A stretch of 38,194 nucleotides of DNA. Source: a virus. Its lineage: Duplodnaviria > Heunggongvirae > Uroviricota > Caudoviricetes. The notes beneath the pieces are model-generated. The model did not search any database, was not told the DNA's origin, and worked only from the letters and a program-made list of their open reading frames with translations. Below, piece by piece: positions 1 through 28,488 of the stretch; position 1 is the first letter of the stretch, and each line of letters starts with the position of its first letter. The DNA lies in IMG/VR virus record IMGVR_UViG_2925914267_000004; one strand, written 5' to 3'. The position numbers and the translations under genes are program-made.

Positions 1-993
1 CTAATCGATGGACAGTTTATGGACACTTTCAGCCAGCGGATTAAAGTTGATCGCGTCCTGTAAGAAGTCCGGCGAAAAATGAGCGTACGTCATTGTTTGC
101 TGAATCGTTGCGTGCCCCAGGATTCGTTGCAACGTAACAATATTTCCGCCATTCATCATAAAGTGTGTGGCAAATGTATGACGCATGACATGCGTAGCCT
201 GCCCCTTCGGCAAATCCGGTTTCACCTCCTGAAGAATCTCCCGGAACTTCAGATAATCAACCTGATACAATAACCCCGTTCGACGGGTTTTAATCAGAGG
301 CACGACCGAATCCGCCACAGGAACCGAACGGGATTTTCCGTTTTTGGTGTTAAAGAACGTCACCCGGTTGCCAACGATATGCTCTCCACGTAGTTCCGAT
401 GCTTCACTCCATCGGGCACCAGTAGAAAGACACAGAATGGCAACACGACGCGCATCCCCCTCCAGTCGCTCAAGAAGCCGTTCAATCTCATCATCAGAAA
501 GAAAGGCCATCTCTGTGTTCTGAACTTTCAGTTTTCGTATACCGCGTACAGGGTTCGCGTTGTGAAAGACCTCAGCTTCAATCAGCACCGTGAACATGGT
601 AGACAGTACACATAAGTCACGATTAATACTGGACGGCATTAATCCGGCCTGTAATTTCTCTGACCGATATTCAAGCATAAATTTTCGCGTCATCTGACTG
701 GCGCGAGGATCTCCCATTTCACGAACAACCTTCCCTAGCCTAACCCTGTAGCTATCCCCGTAAGCCTGATTACGCCCATCAAGCATCCACCACGCATCAA
801 GCAGCTCTGATAATCGCCGCTGATCAGCTGGCTTAGCCTGCCATGGCTTGTCATGAAAGTTCTGTAACACATACTTCTCAAACTCCTGAGCCTTTGATTT
901 CAGGGCAAAGATTTTTCGAATCCGCTTTCCTTCCGCCCCCTGCGGTCTGACATCGACCTGATAACGTCCGTCTTTGAGTTGCTTAATCGACAT
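1..993 (-). CDS. int: Tyrosine integrase (P2 Int-like site-specific recombinase)
   Basis: Track ORF 1..1008 begins at TTG; the in-frame ATG at 993 gives MSIKQLKDGRYQVDVRP. C-terminal tyrosine-recombinase signature HTFATHFMMNGGNIVTLQRILGHATIQQTMTYAHF. First gene at the prophage end, convergent with nothing upstream in the window. Confidence 0.9.
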   Translation of the reverse strand: MSIKQLKDGRYQVDVRPQGAEGKRIRKIFALKSKAQEFEKYVLQNFHDKPWQAKPADQRRLSELLDAWWMLDGRNQAYGDSYRVRLGKVVREMGDPRASQMTRKFMLEYRSEKLQAGLMPSSINRDLCVLSTMFTVLIEAEVFHNANPVRGIRKLKVQNTEMAFLSDDEIERLLERLEGDARRVAILCLSTGARWSEASELRGEHIVGNRVTFFNTKNGKSRSVPVADSVVPLIKTRRTGLLYQVDYLKFREILQEVKPDLPKGQATHVMRHTFATHFMMNGGNIVTLQRILGHATIQQTMTYAHFSPDFLQDAINFNPLAESVHKLSID

Positions 994-1062
994 GATTAGC
1001 CCCTCCAACGGATAAATTAACTAAACACTCCTTGCGATATGTAATTCGCTCAATGTGTAGAG

Positions 1063-4944: not shown

Positions 4945-5266
4945 GAAACCAGAACATGCACACACAAAAAAACCGCTTGCCATGCCGCAATCAGTCAGGT
5001 TACATTTCCGCTGCACCTCACAAAACGGGTGTCGGGTTTCGCAGCCTGCTGACAACCAAAGCGCACAACCGCGCCAGCGGTTTTTTTGTGCGTACCGTAT
5101 CGCCACGTCTTTTTCGCACACGAATTATGGTGGGGCGTATGGGGCCGACTTCGGTCGGGCCGGGTTCTTTGGTTGCCGGTACTGCGAACCTCGTACGTCT
5201 CGCCACCCACAGTTTCGCAGCTCTGGATGGTGAGTTTTCAAAACTTACAACCAAAGAGGCCACACC

Positions 5267-5497
5267 ATGGCAAACCGCAAACAGCACCGCGCTATCGCGG
5301 AGCGTCGTCACATCCAGACTGAAATCAACCGCAGACTTTCCCGCGCATCACGCGTCGCTAAAATCATGCACATCAATATGCTGCATGAACGTAGCTGCGA
5401 ACTTTCAAACCTCTACTCATCCGCTGTTTTCAGCTATCTGGCGGATGATCTGCGCGAGCTTCAGCAGCTCATCCAGCAGCAAAACAAACTCCATTAA
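5267..5497 (+). CDS. Hypothetical small basic protein
   Basis: 76-aa ORF preceded by GAGG; follows an about 320-bp non-coding stretch. Confidence 0.45.
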   Translation: MANRKQHRAIAERRHIQTEINRRLSRASRVAKIMHINMLHERSCELSNLYSSAVFSYLADDLRELQQLIQQQNKLH

Positions 5498-5569
5498 TTC
5501 CTGTTCCGGGCCTTTCCTGCACCTTGCGGCGGGAGGCCTTCGCACATCTGTAACAAGAGGATTGCCGCA

Positions 5570-5935
5570 ATGATTCTCGCCAACGACTTTCTTGAATACC
5601 TGCTCAACACAGAACGTGATCTTGCCGCCCGCGTGCGTGATCGTTATGACATGTACCTGAAATCCCTGCCTGTACCGCGGCTCGCTGACGGAAAGATTGT
5701 TATTGATGGTCGCTACATGATTGACAGCCATGAGGGAAATTACAGGCTTTACCGCATTGAAGGTGGCACCCCGTCCGTTATTGGCATTTACCAGCGCCCA
5801 TCCTCTGCAATCGTCGATGTGATTGCCGACATCATCCGCATCACACATCGCCATGCCGACACAGAAGACACCGTGCTGGAAATTCAGCGGCTGGCTACCG
5901 TCTGCCGCGACACCCTGAATGGCATGACGAAGTAA
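5570..5935 (+). CDS. Hypothetical protein immediately upstream of replication gene A
   Basis: 121-aa ORF in the position of a P2 replication accessory gene; position only. Confidence 0.45.
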   Translation: MILANDFLEYLLNTERDLAARVRDRYDMYLKSLPVPRLADGKIVIDGRYMIDSHEGNYRLYRIEGGTPSVIGIYQRPSSAIVDVIADIIRITHRHADTEDTVLEIQRLATVCRDTLNGMTK

Positions 5936-23231: not shown

Positions 23232-25334
23232 ATGAGTACCACAACACGAAAATTTAAAACCGTTATCACCGATACGGGTGCAAAAAAATTAGCTCAGGCA
23301 GCCGCGCCAGATGGTAAGCCTGTCCGCCTGACTCATATGGCCGTGGGCGACGGTGGCGGCACGTTGCCCACACCAGACAGTAAGCAGACCCGTCTGGTGC
23401 ATGAGGTGTGGCGACACACTGTTAATCGCGTCATCCTGGACGCAACACATCAGAACCGCATTATTGCGGAGCTGGTTATTCCTCCTGAAACGGGCGGATT
23501 CTGGATCCGGGAAATTGGTGTATTTGATGAGCACGGCGATTTGATCGCGGTGGGCAATACTGCGGAAAGTTACAAGCCAGCCGTTGCCGAAGGATCCGGA
23601 CGTGCACAAACATTTCGCACCATTCTGACCGTATCCAGCACTGCCACCGTGGCGCTTACCGTGGATAACACCATGGTGATGGCCACAGTGGATTACGTGA
23701 ATGACAAACTGAAAGAACATGAACAGTCACGACGTCACCCGGACGCCTCGCTGACCGCAAAAGGCTTTGTTCAACTCAGTAGCGCCACTAACAGCACGTC
23801 TGAAACGCAGGCTGCAACGCCGAAAGCAGTAAAAGCCGCGTATGACCTGGCTAACGCAAAATATACCGCTCAGGACGCCACGACGGCACGAAAAGGGATA
23901 GTCCAGCTCAGTAGTGCCACCAACAGCACGTCTGAAACGCTGGCCGCGACACCGAAAGCGGTTAAGGTGGTAATGGATGAAACGAACAAGAAAGCGCCCT
24001 TAAACAGCCCGGCGCTGACCGGAACGCCAACAACACCAACTGCGCGACAGGGAACGAATAATACCCAAATCGCAAGCACGGCTTATGTGATGGCCGCGAT
24101 TGCCGCACTTGTAGACTCGTCGCCTGACGCACTGAATACGTTGAACGAGTTAGCGGCGGCGCTGGGCAACGACCCGAATTTTGCGACCACCATGACTAAC
24201 GCGCTTGCGGGTAAGCAACCGAAAGATGCCACCCTGACGGCGCTGGCCGGGCTTGCTACTGCAGCAGACAGGTTTCCGTATTTTACGGGGAATGATGTTG
24301 CCAGCCTGGCAACCCTGACAAAAGTCGGGCGGGATATTCTTGCAAAATCGACCATTGCCGCCGTTATCGAATACCTCGGTTTACAGGAAACGGTAAATCA
24401 GGCTTCTGGAGCATTACAAAAAAACCAGAACGGCGCAGATATTCCGGGAAAAGATACCTTCACCAAAAATATTGGGGCCTGCCGCGCATATAGTGCAGGG
24501 CTGAATATTGGTGGCGATAGTCAGGCCTGGACAACCGCACAATTCATTTCGTGGCTGGAGAGTCAGGGGGCATTTAACCATCCTTACTGGATGTGCAAAG
24601 GCTCATGGGCTTATGCAAATAATAAGGTCATTACAGATACAGGTTGCGGAAATATTTGTCTTGCAGGTGCTGTGGTGGAAGTTATTGGCACTCGCGGCGT
24701 AATGACCATACGCGTTACCACGCCGAGTACGTCCAGCGGCGGCGGAATCACTAACGCTCAATTCACTTATATTAATCATGGTGATGCTTATGCTCCTGGC
24801 TGGCGACGAGACTACAACACGAAAAATCAACAACCTGCATTTGCTTTAGGGCAAACAGGAAGCACTGTCGGAAATGATAAAGCTGTTGGCTGGAACTGGA
24901 ATAGCGGGGTCTATAACGCAAGCATTGGTGGCGCAACAGCATTAATCCTCCACTTCAATATGAATACGGGGAGTTGCCCTGCCGTACAGTTCCGCGTGAA
25001 TTACAGGAATGGCGGTATTTTTTATCGTTCAGCGCGTGATGGTTATGGATTTGAGGCTGACTGGTCAGAGTTTTACACCACGACCCGCAAACCCTCTGCG
25101 GGAGATGTTGGTGCATACACGCAGGCAGAATGTAACTCAAGGTTTATTACAGGTATTCGCCTTGGCGGTCTGTCATCTGTTCAGACATGGAATGGTCCCG
25201 GCTGGTCTGACAGGTCAGGTTATGTCGTTACGGGTTCAGTTAACGGAAACCGTGATGCATTAATTGATATAGCTCAGGCAAGGCCAATTCAGTATTGCAT
25301 TAATGGGACGTGGTATAACGCGGGGAGTATTTAA
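23232..25334 (+). CDS. H: Tail fibre protein H (conserved N-terminal part plus invertible C-terminal part)
   Basis: 700-aa ORF; N-terminus [25 protein letters not shown] is characteristic of P2-type tail fibres. The hix-like crossover site lies in-frame at 24364-24389, encoding IEYLGLQE. Confidence 0.88.
23762..23990 (+). repeat. Tandem coding repeat in tail fibre H
   Basis: Two copies of a unit encoding [13 protein letters not shown](Q/L)AATPKAVK, about 132 bp apart. Confidence 0.6.
24364..24389. other. Hin/Gin-type inversion crossover site (left), inside H
   Basis: TTATCGAATACCTCGGTTTACAGGAA is the inverted counterpart of the site at 28409-28434 (reverse complement TTATCTAAAACCTCGGTTTACAGGAA), differing at 2 of 26 positions. 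Confidence 0.65.
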
Positions 25335-25336
25335 TT

Positions 25337-25501
25337 ATGATGCACTTAAAAAATGTTACTGCTGGCAACCCTAAAACAAAAGAGCAATACCAGCTAACGA
25401 AACAATTTAACATCAAATGGCTTTATACAGAGGATGGGAAAAACTGGTATGAGGAACAAAAGAACTTTCAGCCTGATACGTTGAAAATGGTCTATGACCA
25501 T
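25337..25501 (+). pseudogene. G: Tail fibre assembly chaperone G, 5' fragment (interrupted by IS)
   Basis: [55 protein letters not shown] closely parallels the P2 G N-terminus; the reading frame runs into a TGA that is the first triplet of the IS. Confidence 0.75.
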
Positions 25502-25565
25502 TGAGGTAGCCTGAGTTTAACGGACACTCCTTCCTGAAATAGAATGGCATCAGAAGGAGCTAATA

Positions 25566-25868
25566 ATGAGCAGAAAAACCCAACGTTACTCTAAAGAGTT
25601 CAAAGCCGAAGCTGTCAGAACGGTTCTTGAAAATCAACTTTCGATCAGTGAAGGCGCTTCCCGATTATCTCTTCCTGAAGGCACTTTAGGGCAATGGGTT
25701 ACCGCCGCCAGAAAAGGGCTCGGTACTCCTGGTTCCCGCACGGTGGCTGAACTGGAATCTGAAATTCTGCAACTGCGTAAGGCGTTAAATGAAGCTCGCC
25801 TTGAGCGAGATATATTAAAAAAAGCAACAGCGTATTTTGCACAGGAGTCGCTGAAAAATACGCGTTAA
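25566..25868 (+). CDS. IS3-family transposase OrfA (HTH)
   Basis: 100-aa ORF MSRKTQRYSKEFKAEAVRTV... with leucine-zipper-like C-terminus and an A-run slippery motif (about 25815-25822) near its end. Confidence 0.85.
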   Translation: MSRKTQRYSKEFKAEAVRTVLENQLSISEGASRLSLPEGTLGQWVTAARKGLGTPGSRTVAELESEILQLRKALNEARLERDILKKATAYFAQESLKNTR

Positions 25869-25903
25869 TCGAACAATGGCGACAACAATTTCCCATTGAA
25901 GCG

Positions 25904-26722
25904 ATGTGTCAGGTATTTGGTGTATCCAGGAGCGGTTATTACAACTGGGTACAGCATGAACCCTCAGACAGAAAACAAAGTGATGAGCGGCTAAAACTGG
26001 AGATTAAGGTGGCACATATCCGCACTCGCGAAACATATGGAACCCGGCGGCTCCAGACGGAGCTGGCAGAGAATGGCATCATCGTTGGTCGTGACCGACT
26101 GGCACGTCTTCGTAAGGAGCTAAGGCTACGCTGTAAGCAGAAACGCAAGTTCAGAGCGACTACGAACTCGAACCACAATCTGCCAGTTGCGCCAAATCTG
26201 CTGAACCAGACGTTCGCTCCTACAGCACCAAATCAGGTCTGGGTGGCGGACCTGACGTATGTTGCCACACAGGAGGGATGGTTGTACCTCGCTGGCATCA
26301 AAGATGTTTATACGTGCGAAATTGTCGGCTACGCCATGGGAGAGCGCATGACAAAAGAGCTGACAGGTAAAGCCCTGTTTATGGCGCTCAGGAGCCAGCG
26401 CCCACCTGCCGGGCTAATCCACCACTCTGATCGAGGTTCACAGTACTGCGCATACGATTACCGGGTCATACAGGAGCAGTTTGGTCTGAAAACATCAATG
26501 TCGCGTAAAGGTAACTGTTACGACAACGCTCCGATGGAAAGCTTCTGGGGAACGCTGAAAAATGAGAGCCTGAGCCACTATCGTTTTAATAACCGGGATG
26601 AAGCCATCTCAGTAATACGGGAATACATTGAGATTTTCTACAATCGTCAGCGTCGTCACTCTCGTCTGGGGAATATCTCCCCGGCAGCCTTCAGGGAAAA
26701 ATATCATCAGATAGCTGCTTAA
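25904..26722 (+). CDS. IS3-family transposase OrfB (DDE catalytic domain)
   Basis: 272-aa ORF in the -1 frame relative to orfA, with the usual IS3 OrfAB frameshift layout. Confidence 0.85.
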   Translation: MCQVFGVSRSGYYNWVQHEPSDRKQSDERLKLEIKVAHIRTRETYGTRRLQTELAENGIIVGRDRLARLRKELRLRCKQKRKFRATTNSNHNLPVAPNLLNQTFAPTAPNQVWVADLTYVATQEGWLYLAGIKDVYTCEIVGYAMGERMTKELTGKALFMALRSQRPPAGLIHHSDRGSQYCAYDYRVIQEQFGLKTSMSRKGNCYDNAPMESFWGTLKNESLSHYRFNNRDEAISVIREYIEIFYNRQRRHSRLGNISPAAFREKYHQIAA

Positions 26723-26768
26723 AAAAAGAACAAATGGTAGTGTCCGCTATTGCCAGTACACCTCACAT

Positions 26769-27137
26769 AACGGCGTTATTATTTGTATTGAAAAGGATGT
26801 TTCAGCAATTAATCCGGAAGGCGCAAGCGTCGTTGAATTACCTGATATTACAGCAAATCGCCGTGCTGACATTTCGGGTAAATGGATGTTCAAAGATGGC
26901 GTAGTGGTAAAGCGAACTTATACCGAGGAGGAGCAAAGGCAACAAGCGGAAAATGAAAAGCAGAGCCTGCTGCAGCTCGTCAGGGATAAAACCCAGCTGT
27001 GGGACTCTCAGCTACAGCTGGGCGTCATTTCCGACGAGAATAAACAAAAATTAACCGAGTGGATGCTCTATGCGCAGAAAGTCGAATCCACAGACACCTC
27101 CAGCCTGCCGGTAACATTCCCCGAACAACCAGAATGA
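26769..27137 (+). pseudogene. G: Tail fibre assembly chaperone G, 3' fragment
   Basis: Reading frame NGVIICIEKDVSAINPEGASVVELPDITANRRADISGKWMFKDG... continues the P2 G alignment directly after the IS and its CAT duplication. Confidence 0.75.
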
Positions 27138-27263
27138 GAAAGGCCCGTTATCGGGCCTTAATTTTACTCAGGCTTTTGTGGTCATCCAGGCTTTTCCATA
27201 TCCACATGGCTGCGGAGAGCAAGGAAATACAAAATAACAAAAATGATAATAATTGTGATGACA

Positions 27264-27749
27264 TTATAGCGACGTTTTCACATCCTCTGCACTGCTCTCT
27301 TTGCCGCTTTGTCCGTCTGGAACAGCGGGCCACTCAATATCCGTCTCGGTTGATGTATCAATACGCATAAGTAGCACTCGATATTTTTTCCATTCAGCCA
27401 GCACAGTGATTTCTGCTTCTGTCGCCATCCCTGCGTCAACAGCATCCTGCCGCCAGGCAATTTCTGTGTTCGCAATCCCCGCTAAATCCTTTTTCTTCTG
27501 CTCTTTTAATGCGATTAACTGCTCTGTTGTTGGTTCTGATACATCAATCCATGCGGGGAAACCAGATTCATCACTGCCTCTCTTCTTTCCCTCTGGCGGT
27601 CTTCCCGTAAACTCTTCATACATATCGTTTGTGACTGCCACCAAATCGTCAGGCCATGCGCCTGATTTTTCATAGTCCGGTTTCATGGATTCAAAGAAAA
27701 ACGTATTATTCCTGGCACTATAGAATATTTTACTGGACATGATTAACAC
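27264..27749 (-). CDS. Alternative tail fibre assembly chaperone (Tfa, G') in the inverted cassette
   Basis: C-terminus AEWKKYRVLLMRIDTSTETDIEWPAVP matches the conserved Tfa C-terminal motif; intact 161-aa ORF. Confidence 0.75.
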   Translation of the reverse strand: MLIMSSKIFYSARNNTFFFESMKPDYEKSGAWPDDLVAVTNDMYEEFTGRPPEGKKRGSDESGFPAWIDVSEPTTEQLIALKEQKKKDLAGIANTEIAWRQDAVDAGMATEAEITVLAEWKKYRVLLMRIDTSTETDIEWPAVPDGQSGKESSAEDVKTSL

Positions 27750-28408
27750 CCCACACCAATACAGAAGAATGGTTTAGAAACAGCACCCCCAGACCTTTCC
27801 ATTAACGTGACCTGCATATCGCGATCATTTAATCTTTTAACACCCGCAATTGCACTTGCTATCGAGTCACCAGCAACATTACAGGCTAACAAACCAAAGC
27901 AACGAACAGGCCAGCCAACAGGAAACGGGGCAGGTGCCCAGCCACTGGCATCAGTATTCCCCCAACACCATTGAAAAATGATGCCATTTGGAAAACGTAC
28001 CCAACCAGCATCAGCCATCGCCTGGGTAAAATCACTGTTTTTTGTATATCCCTGAATGCTCCATCCATTCCGGGGAATTAACTGCCTGATATTTCCATCC
28101 AAAGTAAATGCAAGCAGACGACGGTCAGAAATATTGCCTGCCGGAGACAATGCAACGTCTATGTAGTTCGCGCCATTTTCCATTATTCCACAAATGAGAG
28201 ACGACATAATCGCACCGCCAAATGAAAAGTCGACTCCATTTGCACTCCCTGCAACCGTGCTCTTGTTTCTGATGTGAATACCAGAAAAGCCATTATCTTT
28301 TTCAATAAGTAATTCATTCCCAATTAACGAGAGAATGCCCTTGATAATCACATCACCGTTAACCACCCCGCCATATGTTGATAACGCTTCCGAAGCTAAT
28401 TTTACAGT
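27743..28408 (-). CDS. Alternative tail fibre C-terminal cassette (H'v), with no start of its own
   Basis: The minus-strand frame is open from the crossover site (LGLQETVKLASEALSTYGGVVNGDVIIKG...) and is followed by the overlapping Tfa gene; track ORF 27743..28366 is the start-codon-limited part. Confidence 0.65.
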   Translation of the reverse strand, partial: TVKLASEALSTYGGVVNGDVIIKGILSLIGNELLIEKDNGFSGIHIRNKSTVAGSANGVDFSFGGAIMSSLICGIMENGANYIDVALSPAGNISDRRLLAFTLDGNIRQLIPRNGWSIQGYTKNSDFTQAMADAGWVRFPNGIIFQWCWGNTDASGWAPAPFPVGWPVRCFGLLACNVAGDSIASAIAGVKRLNDRDMQVTLMERSGGAVSKPFFCIGVGC

Positions 28409-28434
28409 TTCCTGTAAACCGAGGTTTTAGATAA
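28409..28434. other. Hin/Gin-type inversion crossover site (right), just upstream of the invertase gene
   Basis: TTCCTGTAAACCGAGGTTTTAGATAA closely matches the gix/hix consensus and is inverted relative to the site inside H. Confidence 0.65.
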
Positions 28435-28488
28435 TGGTCGATTTTGGCACGCATGGCATGATTGGCGCTTTTAAACAGGAGATCCAGA

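Follow-up and report, generated by a model that had tools for sequence, protein, structure and literature searches.

The 38,194-nucleotide (nt) Caudoviricetes record IMGVR_UViG_2925914267_000004, the whole of which we call the window, carries a tail-fiber gene H on its plus strand, followed by a second fiber end with its own chaperone gene on the minus strand and then by a gene for a serine recombinase. The arrangement raises the question of whether H has two alternative ends that are exchanged by DNA inversion, and whether the exchange and both of its products are intact in this copy. An initial annotation of the DNA had proposed a Gin/Hin-type invertible segment at 24364-28434. We conclude that the locus is very probably a site-specific inversion switch of the Gin/Cin/Pin/Hin (Din) family that exchanges the receptor-binding tip of the tail fiber. 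The host element is a P88-like (Xuanwuvirus, P2-family) prophage of Escherichia coli. The type of system is already known (Mu G, P1 C, and e14 P), and near-identical copies are present in public data; specific to this copy are only an insertion of IS600 and an unusual invertase allele.

Two crossover sites bound alternative fiber ends

In its present orientation, H (23232-25334, plus strand) encodes a protein of 700 amino acids. The first 382 of these (23232-24375, plus strand), which precede the crossover, form a constant part of the P2 gpH type, recognized by Pfam matches to Phage_tail_fib (E value, 1e-53) and Phage_fiber_2, and this part is unchanged between orientations in relatives. It is joined to the variable tip that is now expressed, which runs through the H stop codon (24378-25334, plus strand). 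The tip is Mu Sv'-like, with 95.7% amino acid identity to the C-terminal part of Mu S', and gives a weak Pfam match to gp37_C. At the nucleotide level, the expressed module is about 95% identical to the invertible segments of Mu, D108, and P7, the C segment of P7 matching it at 94%.

A search of the region for inverted repeats returned one outstanding pair, with arms at 24361-24416 and 28382-28437 that are 56 nt long, are 80% complementary, and each hold one gix-like site of 26 bp. The left site (24364-24389, plus strand) is TTATCGAATACCTCGGTTTACAGGAA, which divides into TTATCGAATACC-TC-GGTTTACAGGAA with the core TC at 24376-24377. The right site (28409-28434, minus strand) is TTATCTAAAACCTCGGTTTACAGGAA, or TTATCTAAAACC-TC-GGTTTACAGGAA, with its core at 28421-28422; the central dinucleotide TC is thus common to the two. 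When the whole window was searched with the gix pattern, allowing at most three mismatches, these were exactly the two matches found, with no third site anywhere in the 38 kb. The same search of 100 shuffled sequences gave no match at all, and we therefore regard the sites as nonrandom. A shufflon or other multiple-inversion system (of the Rci type, or like the three-site P2-like locus of enteropathogenic E. coli [EPEC]) was considered and rejected because only two sites are present.

The sites also have close counterparts in known phages. Both gix sites of Mu are TTATCCAAAACCTCGGTTTACAGGAA, and their centers coincide with the boundaries that the Mu record gives for the G segment; the left site of the window departs from this sequence at two bases and the right site at one, all of them in the outer half-site. 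In phage P88 and in several E. coli P2-like prophages, both sites have the identical sequence, and the left one recurs unchanged as the left site of E. coli prophages of this kind that are seen in the flipped state. The left site lies in frame within H, with 12 residues read across it, and the right site ends 54 bp before the GTG start codon of the invertase gene. The initial annotation, which had described two inverted 26-bp sites of the gix/hix type, one in frame inside H and the other just upstream of a Gin-like invertase, was correct in each of these points, and the limits that it gave to the segment are the outer edges of the two sites.

Inside the segment, on the minus strand, a reading frame is open from the crossover site to a stop at 27743. 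It encodes an alternative fiber tip with a gp53-like C-terminal domain (27743-28420, minus strand; Pfam Gp53-like_C) that is 97.6% identical to the silent tip of the Mu-like phage Mu_3F6. Next to it is the gene for an alternative chaperone of 158 amino acids (27264-27740, minus strand; Pfam Caudo_TAP; E value, 1.3e-34), and the exact protein is found in E. coli assemblies. Both genes are silent in the present orientation. The second fiber end with its own chaperone, and the minus-strand frame that continues right through the crossover site, had both been recognized in the initial annotation and are borne out by the reading frames. A constant N terminus outside the segment and two in-frame C termini, each with a chaperone gene, are accordingly all found at this locus. 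A GC-rich hairpin located by consensus scan at 27140-27159, between the convergent chaperone genes, is terminator-like, and the record of phage D108 has terminators annotated at the equivalent place.

Both orientations occur in near-identical prophages

When 24378-28420 is inverted in silico at the central TC, the H frame continues across the site into the gp53-like tip, for a fiber of 607 amino acids. The exact fusion is encoded on 46 public E. coli contigs and the exact 700-amino-acid current form on 31, which means that the product foreseen in the initial annotation, the N terminus of H fused to the other tip, is an existing protein. The decisive relatives were found through look-ups of exact proteins in draft assemblies. 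Among the contigs read that carry the exact invertase, 14 are in the orientation of the window (contigs L008 and L009 and 12 similar places) and 9 are flipped (L010 to L015 and 3 similar places). Between 19222 and about 36000, the identity of these relatives to the window is 99.7% or higher, except in the left arm of L012, at 98.5%, and the change of strand falls exactly at the two crossover sites. In L010 to L015, the alternative tip is fused to H, and the 158-amino-acid chaperone is encoded directly downstream of the 607-amino-acid fiber.

The clearest case is the pair L009 and L010, which have zero mismatches in their flanks of 5142 and 7454 nt (12.6 kb). If L009 is flipped at the core dinucleotide, it becomes L010, with 0 differences over 16,591 nt. 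Polymorphic positions confine the crossover between the two to a stretch of 19 bp centered on the core. The initial annotation had named the occurrence of a single orientation as the result that would count against it; public assemblies hold both, down to a pair of prophages that differ by the flip alone. The same behavior is seen in complete genomes of sister O145 strains, where a related cassette bounded by the same sites points one way in RM8988-C1 and the other way in RM8995-C1. In 125 records of complete E. coli genomes, the constant part of H carries the Mu S'-like tip; in 133, this tip lies beside the invertase. Phase-variable inversion in E. coli P2-like prophages has also been demonstrated by sequencing and PCR (PMC4272514).

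None of the complete E. coli genomes in RefSeq matched the full length of the present right junction, where the silent tip adjoins the invertase. For the flipped left junction, the sole full-length match in complete E. coli genomes was in MLI104K2 (L004), which on inspection proved to be something other than a P2-like prophage in the flipped state: a chimeric fiber gene, frozen in a lambdoid remnant that has no invertase in its vicinity. We did not use it as evidence of inversion. The locus (NZ_CP116925.1; 5897-6979 of L004) belongs to a degraded lambdoid prophage near trpA/yciE, and its junction matches the predicted flipped junction of the window at 97% over 600 nt. Apparently, the gix-containing stretch also serves as a module boundary in the exchange of fiber genes between phage types.

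The invertase

The gene just outside the right site (28489-29079, plus strand) encodes a serine DNA invertase of the Gin/Pin/Cin/Hin group, 196 amino acids long, with a GTG start and an AGGAG 7 nt upstream. The protein matches Pfam Resolvase (E value, 7e-49) and HTH_7 and aligns with the Gin crystal-structure chains 4m6f and 3uj3 with an E value of 4e-99. It is 79% identical to Gin overall; with the enzymes encoded by E. coli P2-like prophages, the identity rises to 95%. Residues 1 to 120 include the Ser9 nucleophile and depart from Gin at two positions; beyond about residue 130, the DNA-binding domain is of the type found in E. coli P2 prophages. A mosaic breakpoint lies at 28877, inside the gene at about codon 130. 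On its 5' side, the invertase gene and the whole cassette match Mu_3F6 at 92 to 95%, and position 131, which is discussed below, adjoins it. A perfect hairpin with a 10-bp stem (29071-29096), terminator-like on both strands, stands between the convergent invertase and gpU genes.

A recombinational enhancer with Fis sites is presumed to lie in the 5' part of the invertase gene (28489-28660). The DNA from 28430 to 28598 is base-for-base identical to gixR-gin of Mu (169 nt), with three differences onward to 28660, and three Fis sites have been reported within the gin coding region (PMC3378877). In Hin, residues Q151, R154, and L155 and the basic residues 47, 48, and 51 make invertase-specific contacts with Fis and the enhancer (PMC3798978), and their equivalents in the window invertase (Q150, R153, L154, K46, R47, and K50) are kept. 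Because the DNA is gin-identical, gin is reported to hold Fis sites, and the contact residues are retained, we infer that inversion would depend on Fis and the enhancer.

An insertion sequence splits the chaperone of the expressed state

The initial annotation had placed the current fiber C terminus and a chaperone gene, G, on the plus strand. The tip is there as described, but the chaperone is not intact, as it is cut after codon 55 by an insertion sequence that had been overlooked. The N-terminal 55 codons of this Mu U'-like gene (25337-25501, plus strand) run into IS600, where a TGA stop is formed at 25502-25504, and the C-terminal 122 codons (26769-27137, plus strand; Pfam Caudo_TAP; E value, 1.5e-24) are stranded on its 3' side. 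The element, a member of the IS3 family, is 1264 bp long (25502-26765, plus strand) and makes up about 31% of the 4071-bp invertible segment. It contains orfA (25566-25868, plus strand; helix-turn-helix [HTH] protein; Pfam HTH_Tnp_1) and orfB (25904-26722, plus strand; DDE protein; Pfam rve). Its ends are TGAGGT...ACCTCA, and a 3-bp target duplication, CAT, stands on either side of it (25499-25501 and 26766-26768); the boundaries and the duplication were set by comparison with uninterrupted relatives. The length, the TG...CA ends, the orfA and orfB genes, and the 3-bp duplication agree with IS600, an element of about 1.26 kb with imperfect terminal inverted repeats and with orfA and orfB in overlapping frames, and public sources name the exact proteins "IS600 ORF1" and "IS3-like element IS600 family transposase."

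Removal of IS600 and one copy of CAT in silico restores a chaperone open reading frame (ORF) of 177 amino acids. The product has the same sequence as the L008 chaperone (100% identity), and its identity to Mu U' is 96.6%. The insertion was in none of the eight near-identical relatives (L008 to L015), and the two chaperone fragments are on record from a single contig; for these reasons we consider that the insertion is, as judged from sequence comparison, private to this genome.

Mu requires its U chaperone, and P2 its G chaperone, for fiber folding. Tail-fiber chaperones of this family are generally needed for that step (PMC9608196). In its present orientation, the prophage would therefore produce an S'-like fiber without its chaperone, and the fiber made in the expressed state can most likely be neither folded nor assembled. 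In the silent pair, both genes are intact, and a flip would be expected to bring back a complete set of fiber and chaperone.

Mechanism and alternative explanations

By analogy with the known Din systems, dimers of the invertase would bind the two inverted 26-bp sites, assisted by Fis bound to the enhancer in the 5' part of the invertase gene, as the near-identity to gin suggests. Both sites would be cut through both strands at the central TC/GA, and after rotation of subunits and religation, 24378-28420 would be flipped. In the present state, the late operon would supply residues 1 to 382 of H with the Mu S'-like tip, followed by the Mu U'-like chaperone; in the other state, the same N terminus would carry the gp53-like tip as the 607-amino-acid fiber, followed by the 158-amino-acid chaperone. 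The approximately 96% identity of one module to Mu S'/U', together with an unrelated second tip, suggests that the two orientations may confer different host ranges. Mu in its G(-) state has E. coli C, Shigella sonnei, and Citrobacter freundii as hosts.

Several observations weigh against this reading. In a survey of 120 representatives of homologue clusters, 71 to 96% identical to the window invertase, position 131 is Arg in 119 and Lys in the remaining 1, and here it is Cys; position 84 is Gly in 96 of the 120 and here Glu; and position 169 is Asp in 105 and here Ser. Residues invariant in the subfamily are therefore not all kept (R131C and G84E). Position 131 lies outside the catalytic residues. 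The enzyme made by this allele could be a weakened one. We found no published data on Gin R131/Hin R132 or on G84 in the papers searched, among them those on the Hin enhancer and the Gin structure. The clean flips are seen in near-identical prophages carrying this allele, and for the present strain they can only be predicted from its DNA; in those relatives, another Din invertase could have catalyzed them in trans. A scan with the Fis consensus does give matches in the 5' region of the gene, but such matches occur at about 2.6 per kb throughout the window and are uninformative. A related chaperone elsewhere in the genome could also complement the truncated one.

Taken to its limit, this line of argument would make the locus a relic locked in this strain, with an R131C/G84E invertase that is inactive or nearly so, an IS600 insertion that is part of the decay, and relatives that were flipped in trans. 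The rarity of the residues at 84, 131, and 169 would fit such a relic, IS600 has already disabled one gene of the cassette, and cross-complementation between Din invertases has been described (Kutsukake 2006, for two enzymes that both act on the flagellar switch of Salmonella, as cited in PMC4272514). We nevertheless regard it as unlikely. Apart from the changes listed, the enzyme keeps Ser9, an otherwise intact catalytic domain, and its Fis-contact residues, and the other P2-type morphogenesis genes that were checked are all open ORFs. The exact allele, which is present on 98 contigs, stands in both orientations among the contigs read (14 and 9), including in the otherwise identical prophages L009 and L010, and inversion has therefore taken place since the allele arose. 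Of the two outcomes that the initial annotation had set against itself, inactivating changes in the invertase are accordingly the one that keeps some weight, as R131C and G84E are real, and the occurrence of the same allele in both orientations is the answer to it. Another possibility, which we hold to be less likely than not, is that IS600 has made of the two-state host-range switch one that is either on or off, with fiber-defective particles in one orientation and infective ones in the other, and that the R131C/G84E allele inverts at an altered rate or needs an invertase acting in trans.

Two further explanations would dispense with the invertase or with the inversion itself. RecA-dependent homologous recombination between the imperfect inverted repeats has in its favor that the repeats reach 56 nt at 80% complementarity, but we consider it very improbable. 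The crossover between L009 and L010 falls within 19 identical base pairs centered on the core dinucleotide, which is shorter than the minimum of roughly 25 bp for efficient RecA recombination; the differences in the outer half-sites never move, as is expected if exchange occurs at the center of the site; and a cognate invertase adjoins the site in every relative. To dismiss the two orientations as assembly artifacts, one could point to the many contigs that come from short-read draft assemblies. Repeats of 26 to 56 nt are, however, shorter than a typical read and should not confound assembly, the complete O145 genomes hold both states, and the flipped state yields a clean long ORF with its cognate chaperone, and we give this explanation almost no credence. 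A Din-family switch for the fiber tip is the reading that we retain.

Setting of the switch in the prophage

The window is a nearly complete P2-family prophage. Its early and replication genes encode the integrase (1-1008, minus strand, at the left edge of the window), an HTH repressor, Cox, and gpA; the head genes are those for portal, terminase, scaffold, capsid, and small terminase; and the tail genes are V, W, J, I, and H, followed by U-T-E-FII-FI on the minus strand and D on the plus strand. This last block (29108-35965) is inverted relative to the classical P2 order, an arrangement common to P88 and all of the E. coli relatives that were fetched. Chromosomal serS, for seryl-tRNA synthetase, is at the right edge (36902-38194, minus strand), and the element appears to sit beside it, between the integrase gene and serS; there is no tRNA gene within the window.

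Two features away from the fiber locus may be recorded here. In the early region, Rfam matches at gathering level identify the Hfq-binding RNA isrK (5013-5087) and a C4 antisense RNA (5123-5210), both on the plus strand and each lying either at the beginning of an Ash-family ORF (4956-5573) or within it. Between replication gene A and the portal gene, at 9098-11411, are cargo-like genes for a ParM/StbA actin-like segregation protein (9098-10057, plus strand) and a DUF3800 protein (10605-11411, minus strand).

Implications and relationship to known systems

Beyond correct annotation, the finding matters little. The genes called automatically as "phage tail protein" and "gp53-like domain-containing protein" are alternative ends of one fiber gene, the neighboring "recombinase family protein" is the switch enzyme, and the orientation found in an assembly is a snapshot only. 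The IS600 insertion calls for some caution: where this prophage is to be induced, or searched for receptor-binding modules, its expressed state must be expected to come without the chaperone.

The G segment of Mu, with Gin, is the obvious point of comparison. It follows the same plan, with a constant fiber N terminus, inverted 26-bp gix sites, two convergent modules of tip plus chaperone, and an invertase just outside the right site whose catalytic domain is nearly identical to that of the window enzyme. The expressed tip and the restored chaperone of the window are, with the identities to S' and U' given above, the products of a Mu-type module. The window phage differs in belonging to the P2 family, so that its constant part of 382 amino acids is P2 gpH-like and not Mu Sc; in its second module, which is unrelated to Mu S/U (22 to 28% identity); in the P2-prophage type of its invertase DNA-binding domain; and in the chaperone split by IS600.

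In gene order, the locus follows P88 (Xuanwuvirus, Peduoviridae) and the E. coli P2-like prophages, with H, a chaperone gene, then a chaperone gene and a tip on the minus strand, and the invertase, followed by U-T-E-FII-FI (minus strand) and D (plus strand); P88 has a DNA invertase annotated at the same place. The 26-bp sites are identical, and the invertase is close to those of the E. coli prophages, as described above. The silent module of the window differs, being a gp53-like tip of the Mu_3F6 type, as do the IS600 insertion and the R131C/G84E allele. The P2-like prophage loci of EPEC E2348/69, in which inversion was detected experimentally (PMC4272514), are comparable in type, without being equated with the cassette of the window.

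Mu_3F6 (LR595867.1) shares the whole cassette, with both modules arranged alike, together with the first approximately 390 nt of the invertase gene, at 92 to 95% identity over window positions 24357-25501 and 26766-28877. It is a Mu-type phage with another constant fiber part, a Mu-type left site, and a Gin-like C-terminal domain in its invertase, and it is without IS600. More distantly, the P segment of e14 with Pin, the C segments of P1 and P7 with Cin, and the H segment of Salmonella with Hin all work with 26-bp sites and a serine invertase that depends on Fis. Tail-fiber C termini are likewise exchanged in e14, P1, and P7, whereas Hin switches a promoter and makes no coding fusion; the C segment of P1 has long inverted repeats (0.6 kb), and e14 is a lambdoid remnant. 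With the window, a whole invertible cassette is seen to be common to Mu-type and P2-type phages at 92 to 95% identity.

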